DNA from: a virus | Lineage: Duplodnaviria; Heunggongvirae; Uroviricota; Caudoviricetes | IMG/VR virus record: IMGVR_UViG_2778261643_000001 | Coordinates: 1-5,820 of that record | Strand: one strand, 5' to 3' | DNA: 5,820 bases | Translations under genes and position numbers: made by a program | Part shown: positions 1 through 5,820 of the stretch, in pieces | Layout of the letters: every line of letters begins with the position of its first letter | Numbering within the stretch: position 1 is the first letter of the stretch | Notes under the pieces: model-generated | What the model was told of the DNA's origin: nothing | Database searches by the model: none | The model's input: the letters and a program-made list of their open reading frames with translations, nothing else

Positions 1-392
<392 letters not shown>

Positions 393-393
393 G

Positions 394-416
394 AAAAGCC
401 CGGCGTTCGGGCTTTT
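394..416. terminator. Bidirectional rho-independent terminator between the convergent plus-strand gene and the minus-strand operon
   Basis: Stem GCCCG (398-402) / CGGGC (408-412) with a 5-nt loop, flanked by AAAA (394-397) and TTTT (413-416). Either strand therefore reads a GC stem followed by a U-run. It sits between the stop at 390-392 and the stop of the minus-strand gene at 439-441. Confidence 0.7.
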
Positions 417-438
417 CTGTTATGACGGGTTCAATTTT

Positions 439-1413
439 TTATCCGTTACCGCGCGACGGTTTCTGCGTGATAAACGTCTCAAGCATCTTTTCCGCAATTG
501 CCGACCAGGTGTGACACTGGACCTTTTCAGCATTTTTCACGCGATCAACGCGAGCAATAACCTCATCCCAATCAATCCGCGACTTGATAACCATATGGTT
601 CACCAAAGCCAGGCGATCTGGCGGAAGGCAATCGGGAGGCGTTAATACCAACGCCCCGCACATTGCCGCCTCAAGTACAGTTAATCCAAGGCTTTCGGGA
701 TGCGTAACGATAAACACGTCACTCTTACGCAATTCAGCTGCAAATTCGGTTGCTGGTACCGGCGTCCGTCTGTATGGGGTTACCGATATATTCCCCGGAT
801 CAATGGTAATCAATCCGTCATCGGTCAACGTTCTGGCCTCATACGGAACGGTCAGACGCTGAAGGTTCATAAGGATACTTAAGGAGTGATCAAACCCACT
901 AACATCAAATGCAGCGTGGTCTACAAAAATACGCAGAACATCGTCTGTTTTGGTTTCCAGATGGAACAGATCCTGATTCGCTGCCCATCCAACATGTTTG
1001 TTAAAGCGATTATGACGCTCTAACCTGCCTGGATTATCCAGGTACCGCCAGGTATCATCGCGGACAGTAAAAGTAATATCGACTGGTGCCGAATCCAGCA
1101 TAGAACCGTCGTATACCTGGGCTACCCATCCAGTGAATCGACGACGCAGTTGCACGCCTATTTCCCTGGGCACCGTAGTAAAATACCGCAATCCTGGCGC
1201 TAAAATGGCTTTCGCAGAACACGAGGTCGCAGCGGTCAACACAGCTTCAACATAATCCTCCGGGCTTTCGACGCCGGGGGAATATGGACGATGGTATTGC
1301 AATGTTACCCCTGCCTCACTAAAGGCGCAGGCCAGGTTGTAAGCCCACATTTCCGTATATGTTTTCACATCACTGATAGCTTCAAATTTTCGCCCAATGA
1401 TCAGGATGTTCAT
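439..1413 (-). CDS. dbn: GT-B fold (GT1/GT4-like) glycosyltransferase-like protein, about 324 aa; alternative upstream start at 1437 overlapping the helicase stop
   Basis: Long minus-strand ORF. The ATG at 1413-1411 is preceded by GAGGAAAAG with about 7-8 nt spacing (strong RBS); the ORF-track start at 1437 forms TAATG with the helicase stop. N-terminus MNILIIGRK and C-terminal region SDVFIVTHPESLGLTVLEAAMCGALVLTPPD resemble the conserved E-x7-E region of retaining GT4 glycosyltransferases. The symbol is from my recollection that the gene downstream of ban in P1 is called dbn; it has not been verified by search. Confidence 0.75.
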   Translation of the reverse strand: MNILIIGRKFEAISDVKTYTEMWAYNLACAFSEAGVTLQYHRPYSPGVESPEDYVEAVLTAATSCSAKAILAPGLRYFTTVPREIGVQLRRRFTGWVAQVYDGSMLDSAPVDITFTVRDDTWRYLDNPGRLERHNRFNKHVGWAANQDLFHLETKTDDVLRIFVDHAAFDVSGFDHSLSILMNLQRLTVPYEARTLTDDGLITIDPGNISVTPYRRTPVPATEFAAELRKSDVFIVTHPESLGLTVLEAAMCGALVLTPPDCLPPDRLALVNHMVIKSRIDWDEVIARVDRVKNAEKVQCHTWSAIAEKMLETFITQKPSRGNG

Positions 1414-1436
1414 CGGCTTTTCCTCATTCCATTGCA

Positions 1437-2801
1437 TTAATAATCCTCTTGCCAGTCAGCACCAGCATAGTTATCAAACCGTGAGTATTGGCCGTTAAAA
1501 GCCAATCTCACCGTGCCAATTGGGCCATTTCGTTGCTTTCCGATAATTACCTCGGCAATGCCCTTCATTTCGCTATCCGGGTGATAAACTTCGTCGCGAT
1601 ACAGAAACATGATCAGGTCTGCGTCCTGCTCAATTGCTCCTGATTCACGTAAATCTGAATTTACCGGTCGTTTGTCCGCACGCTGTTCAAGCGATCGATT
1701 AAGTTGTGACAATGCCACCACCGGTACTTGTAATTCCTTCGCCAACGCCTTCAGTGAGCGAGAAATCTCGGCAATTTCCAGCGTTCGGTTATCTTGCAGC
1801 TCGGGGACGCGCATAAGTTGCAGGTAGTCGATCATAATCATGCTCAAACCACCATTTTCTTTATAAACACGACGAGCGCGGGAACGAAGCTCTGTAGGTG
1901 TCAGGGCGCTTGAGTCATCAATAAAAATATTCTGCTTGTCCAACAGAATCCCCATTGCGCCAGAAACCCGCGCCCAATCCTCGTCGTTAAGTTGCCCTGT
2001 TCGAATACGAGTCTGATCAACGCGTGCAAGAGAAGCCAGTGAGCGCATCATCAGCTGGTGGCTCGGCATCTCAAGGCTAAAAACCAATACGGGCTTATCG
2101 TTACGGACTGCGGCATTTTCGACGAGATTCATCGCAAACGTAGTCTTCCCCATCGATGGGCGGGCGGCGACAATAATGAGATCGGACGCCTGAAGTCCTG
2201 CCGTCTTCTTATTGAGATCGGTAAATCCGGTATCAAGCCCCGTTACACCATCATGCGGTCGCTGAAACAACTCTTCTATGCGAGATACCGTTGCATCGAG
2301 AATGCTGGCGATATCTTTTGGACCACTACCGCTCTTTTGTCGTTTTTCAGCTATTTCAAAAACGCGGCGCTCGGCCATATCCAGCAATTCATTGCTGCCC
2401 CTGCCATCCTGCGCATATCCAGCTTCGGCTATTTCATTTGCGACGGAAATCATTTCACGAACAACCGCGCGTTCACGAACGATATCCGCATAAGCACAAA
2501 TATTTGCCGCGCTGGGCGTGTTCTTTGACATCTCCGCAAGGTACGCAAAACCACCGGCGCGTTCTAATTTACCGTTCTGTTCAAGTGCTTCAGCAAGTGT
2601 TATCAAATCAATCGGTTTGCCATGACTTAATAACCTCTCCATCTCACTGAAAATTTCACGATGAGCACTGGTAAAAAAATCATCAGCAACTATACGATCT
2701 GCAACTTCATCCCAGCGGCAGTTATCAAGCATTAAGCCACCAAGTACAGCTTGTTCTGCACTAAGGGAATTTGGCATGGATTCAAGAGGGGATGCAGACA
2801 T
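1437..2801 (-). CDS. ban: DnaB-family replicative DNA helicase, phage P1 Ban-like; likely start at ATG 2801, with an in-frame GTG at 2807
   Basis: The translation aligns by eye along its whole length with E. coli DnaB: SAEQAVLGGLMLDN, AARPSMGKTTFAMNLVENAA (Walker A), LIMIDYLQLM, VPVVALSQLNRSLEQRADKRPVNSDLRESGAIEQDADLIMFLYRDEVYH, IIGKQRNGPIGTVRL. The N-terminus is shorter than host DnaB, as I recall for P1 Ban. GGAG lies 5 nt upstream of the ATG at 2801. The context of three tRNAs, a lipoprotein and a coupled downstream gene argues for a phage paralogue, not chromosomal dnaB. Confidence 0.93.
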   Translation of the reverse strand: MSASPLESMPNSLSAEQAVLGGLMLDNCRWDEVADRIVADDFFTSAHREIFSEMERLLSHGKPIDLITLAEALEQNGKLERAGGFAYLAEMSKNTPSAANICAYADIVRERAVVREMISVANEIAEAGYAQDGRGSNELLDMAERRVFEIAEKRQKSGSGPKDIASILDATVSRIEELFQRPHDGVTGLDTGFTDLNKKTAGLQASDLIIVAARPSMGKTTFAMNLVENAAVRNDKPVLVFSLEMPSHQLMMRSLASLARVDQTRIRTGQLNDEDWARVSGAMGILLDKQNIFIDDSSALTPTELRSRARRVYKENGGLSMIMIDYLQLMRVPELQDNRTLEIAEISRSLKALAKELQVPVVALSQLNRSLEQRADKRPVNSDLRESGAIEQDADLIMFLYRDEVYHPDSEMKGIAEVIIGKQRNGPIGTVRLAFNGQYSRFDNYAGADWQEDY

Positions 2802-3086
2802 TAGCACTCCACCCAGGCGTGCTGAATGTCAGATATAATCGGCATACTCAAATCACTCCTAACGATATGAGTCATCACCAGAAAATCAGGATTAATGCGC
2901 CGGACTCTTCCCGGCTGTCACACCGAATCGCCAGGATGGTGAGTCCCTGAATCCGCTATCCCTCCAACGGTGACTTGCACATTCCGGCTACCTGGTTTGT
3001 TGCCTGAGCTAGGGGAAAAGGCAATCCCTTTAACGTCACCAGACCGCTAACGACGCATGTGCCAGACGCCGTGTTACAACCAAATA

Positions 3087-3162
3087 TGGTGGCCCCTACC
3101 GGACTTGAACCGGTGACCGTGCGATTATGAGTCGCCAGCTCTAACCACTGAGCTAAAGGGCC
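3087..3162 (-). tRNA. tRNA-Ile2-like, anticodon CAU (presumed lysidine-modified, AUA-decoding); tRNA-Met not excluded
   Basis: Minus-strand sequence GGCCCTT-TA-GCTC-AGTGGTTA-GAGC-T-GGCGA-CTCATAA-TCGCA-CGGTC-ACCGG-TTCAAGT-CCGGT-AGGGGCC-A-CCA folds as a 76-nt cloverleaf with encoded CCA. The acceptor and D arms closely resemble E. coli ileX as I recall it. P1 is reported to carry a tRNA-Ile (tentatively trnI). Confidence 0.88.
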
Positions 3163-3189
3163 GGATTACTGCCAATTTTGCTTACGCTT

Positions 3190-4017
3190 TTATTTCACCG
3201 GAACAAACGGAACAGCGGCATTACTGGTCATATACTGCGGTAATGTACCGTTCCATTTGTTGATCGCTTCCAACTCCATAACACCGGGGTTCTGGCGCAG
3301 AGCTTCACCACGTAAACGAATGGCATCAGCTTCGGCCTGGGCTTTTGTGCGAATAGCATCAGCCTGTCCGGCAGCTTCCGCGCGCAGCATGTTGGCCTCT
3401 GCTTCACGTTGTTTGACCTCTTGCTCGCGTTGCAGGGTTTTTTGGTTTGCCGTGACTTTGGCGTTAATACTGTCAATAACTGTTGGCGGGTATTCTGGCT
3501 TACCTACATAAGAGAGGCTCATCACCTGAATGCCGATTGGCGTCATTTCTTCCTGAATGTCTTTAAGGGCTGCATCAAGCAATTCAGATTTGCCACCGTC
3601 GATAAATTTGTCGGTGGTCATTTTGCTGGCTAACCGGTTCAGAGCATCTGCAACCTTCTGGCGTAGATCGGTATCAGTAATATCATCTACACCTTTGCGA
3701 TAGGTCTGAAATACCGTTGTGACTTTTGCTGGATCAACCTTGTAGGCTACGCCGATGTGGTAACCAATGGTTGTTCCGTCGCTCATCTGGAAGCTGAACG
3801 GCTCATCGTATGTCTTCATTTGCTTAAAGGTCGGGAAGATATAAACTTCAGTATTCAAGCCTGTCCAGTAGCGACCAACGCCAACTACTTCACCGATACC
3901 TTTATCATCCCCCAGCTTATTTACTTTGATCCCTACGTTACCTGGCTCTACCCGATCGCATCCGGTCAGGCATAAAGAACCCAAAATAATCGCTGCACTA
4001 ATCAACGTTTTTTTCAT
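3190..4017 (-). CDS. SPFH/Band-7 (stomatin/prohibitin-like) domain lipoprotein with C-terminal coiled-coil, 275 aa
   Basis: N-terminal signal peptide with lipobox (MKKTLISAAIILGSLCLTGC, Cys at the +1 position). The central region reads like an SPFH domain and the C-terminus is an Ala/Glu/Arg/Gln-rich predicted coiled-coil (QREQEVKQREAEANMLRAEAAGQADAIRTKAQAEADAIRLRGEALRQ). RBS AGGA lies about 9 nt before the ATG. It may correspond to the P1 'putative lipoprotein' (plp), but that name is a tentative recollection. Confidence 0.85.
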   Translation of the reverse strand: MKKTLISAAIILGSLCLTGCDRVEPGNVGIKVNKLGDDKGIGEVVGVGRYWTGLNTEVYIFPTFKQMKTYDEPFSFQMSDGTTIGYHIGVAYKVDPAKVTTVFQTYRKGVDDITDTDLRQKVADALNRLASKMTTDKFIDGGKSELLDAALKDIQEEMTPIGIQVMSLSYVGKPEYPPTVIDSINAKVTANQKTLQREQEVKQREAEANMLRAEAAGQADAIRTKAQAEADAIRLRGEALRQNPGVMELEAINKWNGTLPQYMTSNAAVPFVPVK

Positions 4018-4234
4018 TAATTAATTTCCTGGTTTTTTCACGAAAAAAGACTACTGCGAAAGCCGGGTAAATGAGCGCAAGAAGGACTCCCAACAATACA
4101 AGTATTGTGCTGTTAGATGAGATCATATTTGGCAAAAGCCAAACATACAGAACCAGTGACACAATCAAACAGAGGACGGCATAAATATATAACCGCACCC
4201 ATAGCGTTCGACATTTGTTCGGATTGTTCTGCAT
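3998..4234 (-). CDS. Small two-TM inner-membrane protein (78 aa) overlapping the SPFH lipoprotein start by 20 nt; likely co-translated partner
   Basis: Two hydrophobic segments (LYIYAVLCLIVSLVLYVWLL and STILVLLGVLLALIYPAFAVVFF) with a basic C-terminal tail. GGAG lies about 9 nt upstream of the ATG at 4234. The 3' end overlaps the downstream lipoprotein gene. SPFH proteins are commonly encoded with a small membrane partner (NfeD-type), although this protein is too short to carry an NfeD OB-fold. Confidence 0.6.
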   Translation of the reverse strand: MQNNPNKCRTLWVRLYIYAVLCLIVSLVLYVWLLPNMISSNSTILVLLGVLLALIYPAFAVVFFREKTRKLINEKNVD

Positions 4235-4393
4235 CCTCTCACTCCATTATTTAACGAATAAAAAAGCTGCGGTGCCGGGTGCCTCCCGGTGTCCTTTGGC
4301 TGGTTATCCACCGTGGACGGGGAAACAAGGAGAAATGAATGGACTGATATAACCATTTCCCCGCGTGCGCTTAGCCGCATTCACCGCAACGGA

Positions 4394-4453
4394 AAGAGCA
4401 TTCTTGGTGGACCTGTAGATTGGGATATGAACCCGTTACAGGAGAATGCTCTT
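4394..4453. repeat. Nested-hairpin repeat element, copy A: 11-bp outer inverted repeat enclosing the conserved core GTAGATTGGGATATGAACCCGTTACA (4415-4440)
   Basis: Outer arms AAGAGCATTCT (4394-4404) and AGAATGCTCTT (4443-4453) are exact reverse complements. Inside, CCTGTA (4412-4417) pairs with TACAGG (4437-4442), and GGG (4422-4424) pairs with CCC (4432-4434) around a 7-nt loop. The core is 24/26 identical to 5095-5120. Confidence 0.6.
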
Positions 4454-4516
4454 ACCTGTTGCGTACTCCGTTTCATGGAGTTAACGGCGGACTAACCATC
4501 CGCCCCAAATTTATAA

Positions 4517-4930
4517 TTAGCTGCTTGCTGACGGATAGTTTTTGGTTAATTGGACCAAGCGAGCATCAAGAGCTTTTCGATAATCAATCATGCTTCCGAG
4601 CTGAATTTCCAAATCCAACTGCTTGCACTGGTCTATAGTGAGGAATTTATCTGTTCCAATGAATCGAACAAGCTTATTTATGCGCTGGCATAGCTGAGCA
4701 CGTTCGATAATCATTCGCTTGTGGTATTCCTCCAAGCCGTCAATTTTGCCCAACGGAGCTGCTATTTCATTAAATTCACGAAGTGGTATTTTGAGTTCGT
4801 TACCGAACACATCTACAACATCAATTTCAGATGCATCTTCTTTCGAAACTTTATCGACCTGATAACTGGTGCTAACCACTAAAGAAATAACAAACTGCTC
4901 TTTCTGCATAATTACCGTTCTCGCACTCAT
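4517..4930 (-). CDS. Hypothetical protein, 137 aa (130 aa if started at the ATG at 4909); no recognisable family
   Basis: Uninterrupted ORF in a stretch that looks somewhat lower in GC than the helicase region by hand count of a 100-nt sample of each. Neither candidate ATG has a convincing Shine-Dalgarno. It is bracketed by the two near-identical repeat cores at 4415-4440 and 5095-5120. I do not recognise any motif in the protein. Confidence 0.5.
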   Translation of the reverse strand: MSARTVIMQKEQFVISLVVSTSYQVDKVSKEDASEIDVVDVFGNELKIPLREFNEIAAPLGKIDGLEEYHKRMIIERAQLCQRINKLVRFIGTDKFLTIDQCKQLDLEIQLGSMIDYRKALDARLVQLTKNYPSASS

Positions 4931-5047
4931 GGGTGACAGTTTCTAAATAAATTGTGATGGTCGGTGCTGAACTCCGACACAGGGTTGTAGCAAGCCCCGC
5001 AAAGCGCGCACTACTGTAGTTGCGGCACATCAGCCTGTGCATTCACC

Positions 5048-5139
5048 ACAACGTTGAGAACACTGATTGTCACGCTGCAACGCAACATTTATTCGTAGAT
5101 TGGGATATGACCCCGTTACGCCAGTGTTCTCAACGTTGT
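5048..5139. repeat. Nested-hairpin repeat element, copy B: perfect 18-bp inverted repeat (5048-5065 / 5122-5139) enclosing a 56-nt spacer with core GTAGATTGGGATATGACCCCGTTACG (5095-5120)
   Basis: ACAACGTTGAGAACACTG and CAGTGTTCTCAACGTTGT are exact reverse complements. Inside, CGTA (5094-5097) pairs with TACG (5117-5120). Compared with copy A the closing pair changes T:A to C:G, a compensatory change, while the 22-nt interior stays almost identical. Confidence 0.6.
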
Positions 5140-5285
5140 AGTGCCGGTTACGGTTCCGGCCAGGCCTCTTCCTCAACGGGGTGTTCTCCATACGGACTAC
5201 CGTTTATTGGTCGTTCCTGCGGTTTATGTTGTGAAGCCAGATGCTTATCTTCTGGTTGCTTCTAAGAGCTGCACTTCATCACAAC

Positions 5286-5359
5286 GGTAAGGGTACTTCG
5301 TAGGGATTCGAACCCTCTGCCAAGCACGGCGATCTCCGACGTCGCAAAATACCCTTACC
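5286..5359 (-). pseudogene. tRNA-like pseudo-element: a canonical T-arm (GGGTTCGAATCCC) inside a perfect 10-bp terminal inverted repeat (GGTAAGGGTA / TACCCTTACC); not a foldable canonical tRNA
   Basis: The minus strand reads GGTAAGGGTA...GCAGAGGGTTCGAATCCCTACGAAGTACCCTTACC. The 10-bp terminal helix and the T-arm are clear, but I cannot place a D-arm or anticodon arm at canonical distances, and there is no encoded CCA. It lies 8 nt downstream (in transcription order) of tRNA-Thr. Confidence 0.4.
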
Positions 5360-5367
5360 TGTTGTGT

Positions 5368-5443
5368 TGGTGCCGGTTAACGGACTCGAACCGCTGACAT
5401 CCTGCTTACAAGGCAGGCGCTCTACCAACTGAGCTAAACCGGC
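5368..5443 (-). tRNA. tRNA-Thr, anticodon UGU
   Basis: Minus-strand sequence GCCGGTT-TA-GCTC-AGTTGGTA-GAGC-G-CCTGC-CTTGTAA-GCAGG-ATGTC-AGCGG-TTCGAGT-CCGTT-AACCGGC-A-CCA folds as a 76-nt cloverleaf with a 7-bp acceptor stem and encoded CCA. P1 is reported to carry a tRNA-Thr. Confidence 0.9.
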
Positions 5444-5445
5444 AT

Positions 5446-5521
5446 TGGCGATGGTGGATGGATTTGAACCATCGACCCGTTGATTAACAGTCAACCGCTC
5501 TAACCGCTGAGCTACACCATC
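5446..5521 (-). tRNA. tRNA-Asn, anticodon GUU; sequence unlike host tRNA-Asn
   Basis: Minus-strand sequence GATGGTG-TA-GCTC-AGCGGTTA-GAGC-G-GTTGA-CTGTTAA-TCAAC-GGGTC-GATGG-TTCAAAT-CCATC-CACCATC-G-CCA folds as a 76-nt cloverleaf with a perfect acceptor stem and anticodon stem. Only 2 nt separate it from tRNA-Thr. P1 is reported to carry a tRNA-Asn. Confidence 0.85.
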
Positions 5522-5650
5522 ACTTGCCGGGTACGTCTCCGGCGAGGGCTTCCACCTCCGTATGCTTTTCGGCGCACCGCGCCCTGGCTGCAATTCGGTA
5601 ACAGGGGATGCATAACCCTGGCTTCCAGCGTGATTAGCGCCTTCAGCATG

Positions 5651-5665
5651 ACGGGATATACCCGT
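5651..5665. other. Short palindromic hairpin ACGGG-ATATA-CCCGT, related to the GGGATAT..CCCGT core of the repeat family
   Basis: 5-bp stem ACGGG/CCCGT with an ATATA loop. It shares GGGATAT and CCCGT with the cores at 4421-4436 and 5101-5116. It lies about 130 bp upstream (in transcription order) of tRNA-Asn. Confidence 0.4.
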
Positions 5666-5682
5666 AGCAAGACGTTATTCCT

Positions 5683-5703
5683 AAATTGCTAAAAGCAATT
5701 GCT
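5683..5703. promoter_or_regulatory. Candidate repressor operator (P1 C1-type?) with palindrome ATTGCT-AAA-AGCAAT and an overlapping third ATTGCT; probably overlaps the promoter of the tRNA-ban operon
   Basis: Minus-strand reading ATTGCTTTTAGCAATTT matches about 13/17 positions of the P1 C1 operator consensus as I recall it (ATTGCTCTAATAAATTT). It sits in the about 300-bp non-coding region upstream of the first minus-strand gene. No comparable site lies directly upstream of the helicase gene (2802-3086). The -35 and -10 elements could not be placed confidently. Confidence 0.3.
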
Positions 5704-5820
5704 GTTACGCCGAATGAAAAAGGACGTAACAGGTAAGGACGCTGACCAAAAAGATGGCCCTGGATTTGCCCCTATATTTCCAGACATCTGTTATCACTTA
5801 ACCCATTACAGGCCCGCTGC

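Follow-up and report, generated by a model that had tools for sequence, protein, structure and literature searches.

Several kinds of RNA signal have been described that resemble the element considered here. The RNase III sites R0.3 to R1.3 of the phage T7 early region are related hairpins that lie between the units of one long transcript, and they have an internal loop and no variable head. The tRNA-like signals cut by RNase P include mascRNA at the 3′ end of MALAT1, the precursor of the P1/P7 C4 antisense RNA, and the punctuation of transcripts by transfer RNAs (tRNAs). That RNase III processes late RNA of phage lambda was reported in 1988 (Daniels et al., Virology 167:568, as titled in the reference list of PMC7547250), and about 22 bp of double-stranded RNA (dsRNA) fit into a dimer of this enzyme (PMC6212723). 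The bacterial Y RNA YrlA (RF02553) is a tRNA mimic that TruB and DusA modify and RNase P can cleave; its long stem occupies the anticodon position, and its acceptor is a closed hairpin between T and D (PMC4201824). The stretch analysed here, called the window, comprises positions 1 to 5,820 of the Caudoviricetes record IMGVR_UViG_2778261643_000001 in IMG/VR and carries on its minus strand an 87-nucleotide (nt) element, hairpin C (5280-5366). We give about an even chance to the proposal that hairpin C is an RNA processing or punctuation module in the C1-repressed leader of the ban operon, in which a lambda-type stem bears a tRNA-derived cloverleaf head.

Over about 90% of its 5,820 nt the window is 97-98.5% identical to P1, RCS47, vB_EcoM-813R1 (813R1) and other P1-like phage-plasmids, and by this measure it is part of a P1-like phage-plasmid. 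In the curated P1 record the homologous region belongs to the ban operon, driven by the C1-repressed promoter Pban, and lies between Pban and ban on the tRNA strand; all relevant features of the window are on its minus strand. The ban leader is more than 1 kb of untranslated RNA with tRNAs and resembles rrn operons. Simple consensus scans of 4200-5820 found no sigma-70 promoter or intrinsic terminator, consistent with a single read-through transcript.

Hairpin C, as delimited by predicted folds and a covariance model, begins 1 nt past the CCA end of tRNA-Thr(UGU) (5368-5443, minus strand; called by ARAGORN, 74.9 bits with the Rfam tRNA model). An earlier note, made from the letters of the window, had described 5286-5359 as a tRNA-like pseudo-element beside this tRNA, with a T arm and perfect 10-bp terminal repeats. 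The position beside tRNA-Thr, the T arm and the repeat (GGTAAGGGTA, 5286-5295; TACCCTTACC, 5350-5359) are all confirmed, but the boundaries are too narrow because the helix runs on beyond the repeat. CACAAC (5366-5361) pairs with GUUGUG (5285-5280) in a lower stem, A5360 is bulged, and a 15-bp upper helix joins GGUAAGGGUAUUUUG (5359-5345) to CGAAGUACCCUUACC (5300-5286), for a total of about 20 bp with one bulged A. A lone 10-bp inverted repeat is not rare in itself, at least one being found in 36% of Markov shuffles of the window. The fold of the whole element has z = -4.1 to -4.8 relative to shuffles, and a covariance model built from 15 relatives scores hairpin C at 109.8 bits.

The head (5344-5301) resembles a tRNA in the order and shape of its parts. 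A D-like arm, which the earlier note had not been able to place, is recognizable both in the sequence and by alignment with the D arm of tRNA-Thr (GCGA-CGUCGGAGA-UCGC, 5345-5329, minus strand). Its stem has 3-4 bp and its 9-nt loop, with GG at the place of tRNA G18/G19, fits the tRNA pattern R15 Y16 Y17 G18 G19 N N A21. The anticodon arm had been reported missing, and there is indeed no 5-bp stem with a 7-nt loop; the alignment nevertheless places a vestigial remnant there, GCC-GUGCUU-GGC (5330-5319, minus strand), with a stem of 2-3 bp and a loop of 6-7 nt, which is the most variable part of the head. Only 11-12 nt (5329-5318) separate the D-like arm from the T arm, (G)AGGG-UUCGAAU-CCCU(A) (5317-5301, minus strand). 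The T arm adjoins the 3′ strand of the helix directly, giving the geometry of an acceptor/T minihelix; at the 49:65 position the window copy has a G·A mismatch and one relative (L107) a G-C pair. At a single place in the window the plus strand has GGGATTCGAACCC, which is GGGUUCGAAUCCC in minus-strand sense. The minus strand is the functional strand of hairpin C.

These features do not add up to a tRNA. ARAGORN calls three tRNAs in the window (3087-3162, 5368-5443 and 5446-5521), each scoring 65-75 bits with the Rfam tRNA model, and finds no tRNA at 5286-5359 and no transfer-messenger RNA (tmRNA). The Rfam tRNA model (RF00005) has no hit at hairpin C, either in the whole window or in a 118-nt search at E<=10, and together these results rule out a real tRNA or tmRNA. 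Hairpin C does have the UUCRANY loop of a T arm, and G18 and G19 in its D arm. It lacks the 5-bp stem and 7-nt loop of an anticodon arm, and in place of a 7-bp acceptor with free ends, discriminator and CCA its helix runs on for 15 + 5 bp; after the seventh helix pair the sequence is CCCUUACC, which agrees with the earlier report that CCA is missing. In the 118-nt search the tmRNA model RF00023 matched only 13 nt of the T arm (6.0 bits), and the best weak minus-strand Rfam hit was mascRNA-menRNA (RF01684; 14.2 bits, E = 1.3, gathering threshold 42.5). A plastid UTR (untranslated region) family gave a 15-nt plus-strand match (16.9 bits) that is the reverse complement of the T arm.

Two other candidates for the same nucleotides were also rejected. 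An intrinsic terminator at hairpin C is contradicted by the absence of a U-tract and by a terminator scan that found none. Plus-strand coding was considered because the P1 open reading frame (ORF) 'plp' runs over hairpin C. This frame is open for 125 codons in P1, 156 in D6, 61 in RCS47 and 813R1 and 43 in the window, and another frame is open in P7; coding therefore does not account for the conservation of the element. The P1 ORFs 'plp' and 'upl' (window 5020-5397, plus strand) are antisense to hairpin C and to a second hairpin, B, and overlap tRNA-Thr; they are probably not genes, as judged from this reading-frame comparison.

The pattern of substitutions among its relatives indicates that hairpin C is conserved as a structure at the RNA level. 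Among 15 distinct copies with the same head (type 1), 11 of the 21 helix pairs have changed on both sides yet stay paired, a value reached in none of 500 shuffles, and pairing in the type-1 alignment is 92.5% in the real structure versus about 40-54% in slid controls. When all collected loci are considered, 74 distinct units can be extracted, which fall into 36 head clusters, and a 17-bp helix is kept across all of them with 85 G·U cells versus 10 A·C cells. Such an excess of G·U over A·C points to an RNA transcribed in the direction of the operon and not to a DNA cruciform. Family members are always oriented with transcription and lie in transcribed, untranslated leaders, namely that of the ban operon and that between Q and the holin genes. 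Random drift with no conservation of the terminal helix, a possibility that the earlier note had raised, is the opposite of what is seen, as the terminal helix is the most conserved part.

The same observations bear on a role in DNA, in which the arms would be recombination 'linkers', cruciforms or attC-like sites for the exchange of heads and cassettes and the RNA structure would be incidental. Heads have been swapped at identical flanks (P1 versus P7; different heads in the same tR′ context; a tandem in 813R1), cassette-like genes lie between hairpins, and the arm sequences are very highly conserved. The strand asymmetry of 85 G·U versus 10 A·C in the helix, the maintenance of pairing through compensatory changes, the constant orientation with transcription and the lack of an associated integrase nevertheless make such a role improbable. 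Conserved arms may still aid homologous exchange as a side effect, alongside a role in RNA. An attC or integron-like site in particular, suggested by the CAAC/GTTG ends, was rejected on the G·U asymmetry and the lack of an integrase.

On the basis of shared helix and flanking sequence, hairpin C is one of three copies in the window of a modular hairpin family with the base consensus CACAAC-A-GGUAAGRGCA… / …UGCYCUUWCC-GUUGUG and a hypervariable head. Hairpin C departs from the base consensus at a few covarying positions. Hairpin A (4382-4464, minus strand) was identified from folds and repeats and scores 34.2 bits with the model R1. Hairpin B (5044-5143, minus strand; z = -6.95) has a 22-bp base and a head with GUAACGGGGUCAUAUCCCAAUCUAC; GGUGAAU and a small hairpin (5025-5040) come after it. 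What the three have in common is the basal helix and its flanks and not the T-arm-like cores, contrary to the earlier view that the T arm of hairpin C is kin to the repeat cores at 4415-4440 and 5095-5120. Those cores, GGGUUCAUAUCCC and GGGGUCAUAUCCC, belong to another head type, conserved elsewhere as GGGNYCAUAWCCC and lacking the T-loop A58. The related proposal that the whole repeat family derives from a tRNA top half also fails, since the family is defined by a basal helix shared with lambda and carries at least 36 unrelated head types, of which about 6 have a T-arm-like hairpin.

The family is widespread. Its base motif, recognized through the 3′ flank CGTTGYGGTGAATGC, is present in at least 120 IMG/VR contigs, and by BLAST the base is found in 1,041 of 5,426 complete E. 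coli genomes, mostly in the chromosome; no annotated feature lies under the base among the matches listed from these genomes. In lambdoid prophages the hairpin lies between the Q antiterminator and holin genes on the late-gene strand, often right after tR′. Phage lambda itself carries CACAACAGGTAAGAGCATTG-(37 nt)-CAGTGCTCTTTCCGTTGTG directly past tR′ (J02459, ~44,787-44,862), and no other non-terminator helix in the late leader of lambda is as long. The hairpin is absent from the Q-to-holin leaders of DLP12 and Qin, two cryptic prophages of E. coli K-12 in which its presence would have tied the family to published RNase III maps. Rfam reports no family for these hairpins. Members of the family begin 0-3 nt past the CCA of tRNA-Thr in P1-like phages, of tRNA-Asn in Klebsiella phage-plasmids and of tRNA-Ser in D6, where a further copy begins 1 nt past an extra tRNA-Ser-like gene. 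P1-type and P7-type cassettes stand in tandem in 813R1.

This distribution leaves little room for an att-site remnant, another suggestion of the earlier note, by which a host tRNA 3′ half would have been left behind by integrase recombination. tRNA 3′ halves are common attB cores and the T arm of hairpin C is canonical. Among the 5,426 E. coli genomes, however, the head with its 3′ strand gave 475 matches, all of them copies of the element at least 95% identical, 466 of them on plasmids and none matching a chromosomal tRNA gene. Moreover, P1 is a plasmid prophage, the lambdoid copies are internal (Q to holin), the structure is conserved at the RNA level with an excess of G·U pairs, and the window holds no integrase. 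We regard the probability of an att-site origin as negligible. No annotated feature lies under the head among the matches listed from E. coli.

One arm of the family also resembles a transcription-elongation signal. The family 3′ strand (UGCUCUUUCC or UGCUCUUACC; window 4391-4400, minus strand) is similar in most members to boxA (UGCUCUUUAACAA in rrn; CGCUCUUA in lambda), is base-paired, and is followed by a GU-rich stretch, GUUGUGGUG. An elongation or stability element, such as a boxA/boxC-like antitermination site, an anti-Rho element or a 5′-stabilizing hairpin for a long untranslated operon, would fit this strand with its GU-rich stretch and the small conserved hairpin beyond it, as well as the length and rrn-like character of the tRNA-bearing ban leader. 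It is nonetheless a very improbable reading of hairpin C: the boxA-like stretch is base-paired in the helix and degenerate (UACCCUUACC in hairpin C, GUGUUCUCAAC in hairpin B), and the lambdoid copies lie downstream of Q-modified transcription that is already resistant to termination.

Hairpin C aligns colinearly with tRNA-Thr over the D arm, the T arm and, between them, the 5′ half of the anticodon arm (CCUGCCUUGUAAGCAGG); the anticodon loop and variable region are shortened by small deletions. The alignment score is 31 versus 17.2 +/- 3.6 for shuffles, 1 of 300 scoring as high. tRNA-Asn and the CAU-anticodon tRNA of the window match hairpin C at the T arm only, or not significantly. The head is thus probably a tRNA-derived cloverleaf without an anticodon arm, as this alignment suggests, and the earlier description of the element as tRNA-like is upheld. 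The type-1 head is also found in the Enterobacter phage BUCT554 (Uetakevirus) and in about 10 lambdoid contigs, where ARAGORN finds no tRNA; where checked, the type-1 lambdoid copies lie between Q and the lysis genes. Type-1 copies differ in the 17-nt D-like arm by no more than one C-to-U substitution in its loop, and in the T arm by no more than A65 to C in L107, which forms the G49:C65 pair. The stem pairs that close the junction do vary, with four pair types at one position.

Derivation from a tRNA invites the view that hairpin C is a neutral relic, a fourth tRNA and paralogue of tRNA-Thr that decayed in place and whose helix is the remnant of an extended acceptor. The colinear alignment, with its deletions in the anticodon loop and variable region, is what such decay would leave, and a separate tRNA-Thr 3′-end remnant at 5141-5160 indicates that tRNA decay occurs in the region. 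In addition, tRNA content differs among P1-like phages, and P7 does not have this head. The same head occurs, however, in lambdoid late leaders and in BUCT554 with no tRNA gene near; its D-like and T arms are almost invariant while the flanking stem covaries; the helix has the sequence of the lambda-type family and not of an acceptor stem; and a second head type has the same architecture. Thus the relic reading accounts for the origin of the head and not for its conservation or its occurrence without neighbouring tRNAs. We consider a neutral relic distinctly unlikely, and the simple form of the idea in the earlier note, a decayed fourth tRNA, does not survive these comparisons. Hairpin C is most likely an RNA-processing signal and less likely a dead gene.

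An intact fourth tRNA at this position in related phages has not emerged either. The extra tRNA-Ser-like gene of D6 lies about 470 nt further downstream and the tRNA-Tyr of Ro157c2YLVW lies between Asn and Thr; neither is homologous to hairpin C. More generally, the tRNA cargo of P1-like phages is variable: the D6 gene is tRNA-Ser(UGA)-like (L003 3748-3834), the tRNA-Tyr of Ro157c2YLVW is at L004 6111-6197, and one IMG/VR contig (L118) has five tRNAs (Arg, Tyr, Thr, Ser, Met/Ile).

The 3′-end remnant of tRNA-Thr, CCGGAACCGUAACCGGCAC (5141-5160, minus strand), was recognized as a repeat directly upstream of hairpin B. Its local alignment scores 29 versus 16.5 +/- 2.9 for shuffles, none of 300 scoring as high. 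The same junction of remnant and hairpin is present in an unrelated contig (L182). This arrangement suggests that tRNA-Thr and hairpin moved or were duplicated as a unit.

A second head type (L239 and others) has the same order of parts, with a D-like arm GCAU-AUCUGGGAA-AUGC and a T arm GCGG-UUCGAUU-CCGC. The type-1 covariance model aligns type-2 arm for arm, with two-sided changes in 2 of 3 D-stem pairs and 2 of 5 T-stem pairs, in an alignment that is fitted by the model and amounts to essentially one evolutionary contrast. The heads of L145 and L117 have a T arm at the same spot, and the T-stem pairs of the type-1 head covary when it is compared with the type-2, L145 and L117 heads. A full tRNA hidden in these other T-arm heads was looked for (L145, L117, L126 and type 2), and none was called by ARAGORN or Rfam. 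A weak match to permuted tmRNA (30.7 bits, E ~0.01) was noted at 6883-7012 of L117 (minus strand), a few hundred nt upstream of its T-arm-bearing family hairpin.

The conservation of these heads raises the question of whether the head, released by RNase III, RNase P or both, is itself the product, a stable tRNA mimic without an anticodon that acts in trans, for example by titrating or redirecting a host factor that binds the tRNA elbow or a defence protein. Conservation is strong at the nucleotides of the elbow (D-like loop, G18 G19; T loop, U54 U55 C56 R57 A58), and about 6 of 36 head types, several of them independent, have T-arm hairpins, set against a rough chance estimate that about 0.4% of 60-nt heads would contain GTTCRANYC. 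YrlA, a substrate of TruB, DusA and RNase P, offers a precedent (PMC4201824), and phage small RNAs (sRNAs) are known to arise from the late-leader 'moron' site (PMC4104026; bioRxiv 10.64898/2026.05.13.724894). Against this, the head is missing from many P1-like phages, being found in 464 genomes versus 730 with the tRNA-Thr region, and a scan of species-representative genomes gave a single genome with the head. A mimic acting in trans is in our judgement unlikely.

A broader and more speculative version combines this idea with the family. The base would be a modular 'socket', an RNase III-cut leader helix that accepts exchangeable heads in lambdoid and P1-like phages. One class of head (type 1, type 2 and those like L145 and L117) would then be an anticodon-less tRNA mimic, excised as a stable small RNA and acting on a host component that binds the elbow (RNase P, a tRNA-modifying or repair enzyme, or a tRNA-directed defence), with phages delivering tRNA decoys from their late or ban operons. 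We think this decidedly unlikely to be correct as a whole.

A processing module accommodates these observations in the following way. Hairpin C would separate the tRNA-Asn/tRNA-Thr cluster from the transcript downstream. RNase III would cut the long helix, which at about 20-22 bp matches the RNase III footprint, and the cut would leave tRNA-Thr with a short 3′ trailer to be trimmed by exonucleases. The D/T elbow, seated on a 12-bp acceptor/T-like helix, could be recognized by RNase P, with a predicted cut at G5352/U5351, and by analogy with YrlA also by tRNA-modifying enzymes such as TruB or TrmA. Either route would release or stabilize a tRNA-like RNA of about 55-75 nt, or provide a structured 5′ end for the RNA downstream. 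The late RNase III cuts of lambda would fall in its own family hairpin, because this is the only long non-terminator helix in the leader. Literature searches gave no readable account of RNA processing in the P1 ban operon or, beyond the 1988 title, of lambda late RNase III sites. Of the three options put forward in the earlier note, a functional tRNA-like processing signal is the one that fits best.

Several observations weigh against this proposal or its parts. The base sequence is more strongly conserved than generic recognition of dsRNA would need. The features expected of an RNase P substrate are poor, in that the 5′ 'leader' is fully paired and no RCCA follows the equivalent of a 7-bp acceptor. 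The cloverleaf is not the preferred fold, as both minimum free energy (MFE) prediction and RNAalifold favour pairing between D-loop UCGGA and T-loop UUCGA over the T arm in type 1; for hairpin C the MFE structure stands at -39.7 kcal/mol, and the most stable one with the T arm reaches -38.6, only 1.1 kcal/mol worse. The alternative pairing is impossible in the type-2 head, whose MFE structure includes the T arm. The D and T stems are invariant within type 1 and provide no covariation of their own, and part of the type-1 sample was gathered with patterns that require the D-like and T sequences; copies found by the base motif alone show the same pattern of variation. The head is also replaceable. 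In P7 and Ro157c2YLVW the same base, likewise placed after tRNA-Thr, bears an unrelated head, and the head found directly past tRNA-Asn in Klebsiella phage-plasmids has diverged and lacks a T-loop. Since P7 lacks the tRNA-like head, the head must be an optional module that is not essential for processing here.

The remainder of the leader contains further structured RNA. The small hairpin after hairpin B (5025-5040, minus strand) reads GCACA-GGCUGA-UGUGC, and its relatives have the compensatory variants GCGCA/UGCGC or UCGCA/UGCGA. In many phages GUGGUG pairs with a downstream CACCAC (GUGAUG with CAUCAC in 813R1), closing a structured domain of about 150 nt. Hairpin A is followed by a module similar to the sRNAs STnc100/PasD (4268-4388, minus strand; 37.8 bits, under the Rfam gathering score of 47), which begins with GGUGAAU right after the hairpin and ends in a CACCGGGAGGCACCCGGCACCGCA stem and a U-tract. 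The Qin prophage of E. coli K-12 has a nearly identical STnc100-like module between dicF and dicB (L307, ~13,460). A family hairpin of L197 aligns by its 3′ arm with the first ~30 positions of the STnc100 model, though loosely and at low posterior probabilities. Upstream of tRNA-Asn, positions 5690-5741 (minus strand) hold a CUGUUACG…CGUAACAG hairpin and a CCUUACCUGUU motif matching the family 3′-arm sequence, and may be a degenerate half-unit of the family.

The genes of the window complete the picture. The first tRNA of the cluster is tRNA-Asn(GUU) (5446-5521, minus strand), identified by ARAGORN and Rfam. The CAU-anticodon tRNA (3087-3162, minus strand) is called tRNA-Met(CAU) by ARAGORN and 'Met' in several phage records, and it is tRNA-Ile2 in the curated P1 record, according to which it is 89% identical to E. 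coli ileX; after lysidine modification it would be read as Ile. By the annotation of the window, ban occupies 1437-2807 and dbn 439-1437, both on the minus strand. A 137-aa ORF related to crAss001_48 forms a cassette between hairpins B and A (4517-4930, minus strand). The region 3190-4234 (minus strand) has an SPFH/Band-7 gene and a 78-aa ORF in place of the P1 tciABC genes; Stx-converting phages have genes about 86% identical to this SPFH gene. Lambdoid 'moron' cargo makes up this mosaic part of the ban operon.

Searches of the literature and Rfam returned no description of a socket with dozens of exchangeable heads, of its presence beside tRNAs in the ban operon, or of tRNA-derived heads. 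If the proposal is correct, a very common structured RNA family has gone unannotated in lambda and P1, the best-studied phages, and roughly one in five complete E. coli genomes carries it. The family would mark the 'moron' and sRNA insertion site past PR′ as well as the tRNA-bearing ban leader of P1-like plasmids, and it would explain how tRNAs, sRNAs of the STnc100/PasD type and accessory genes are excised from one long transcript. The tRNA-derived head would be a phage counterpart of mascRNA-type signals and possibly a tRNA mimic. Annotation would also need correction, as P1 'plp' and 'upl' look spurious. Should hairpin C prove to be only a processing hairpin with a fossil tRNA cap, it would be a modest addition to phage RNA biology.

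Comparison with the described systems locates hairpin C between them. The lambda late-leader hairpin shares a nearly identical basal helix with a bulged A (CACAAC-A-GGUAAGAGCAUUG / CAGUGCUCUUUCC-GUUGUG) and, like hairpin C, is oriented with transcription in an untranslated leader before accessory and lysis genes. Its head, on the other hand, is an unrelated 37 nt without tRNA features, and it follows tR′, whereas the window copy follows a tRNA in the ban operon. The T7 early sites are likewise a repeated hairpin family between functional units of a long phage transcript; they have no sequence relationship to hairpin C, contain an internal loop and carry no variable 'head' cargo. The STnc100/PasD sRNAs (RF02076), prophage RNAs, are found in the same genomic niche, past PR′ in the interval from Q to the lysis genes, and an STnc100-like module follows hairpin A, but hairpin C is not followed by such a module and does not match the model.

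Among tRNA-like RNAs, YrlA also has a long helix formed by its 5′ and 3′ ends and a domain with mimics of the D and T arms. In hairpin C, by contrast, the long stem is an extension of the acceptor, and D is followed by the anticodon remnant and then by T; the GNCGAAN0-1G Rsr motif is absent, relatives vary at that place (CGAAG, CGCAG, CCCAG), and there is no rsr gene. The only hit of RF02553 in the window (19.9 bits) lies over the true tRNAs and none falls on hairpin C. Identity with YrlA or a Y RNA, raised by the long stem and tRNA-like domain, was rejected on the permuted topology, the missing Rsr motif and the lack of a model hit. What hairpin C has in common with the mascRNA-type signals is a cloverleaf-like structure, made up of a D-like arm, a short anticodon arm and a canonical T arm, at a unit boundary within a longer transcript. 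Hairpin C differs from them in that its acceptor is closed into a helix of about 20 bp, with no free 5′ leader and no CCA, and its score with the mascRNA-menRNA model falls so far below threshold that it is not a member of that family. By analogy, hairpin C appears most like a phage RNase III hairpin, as in the lambda late leader and the T7 early region, joined to a tRNA-like signal of the mascRNA type.

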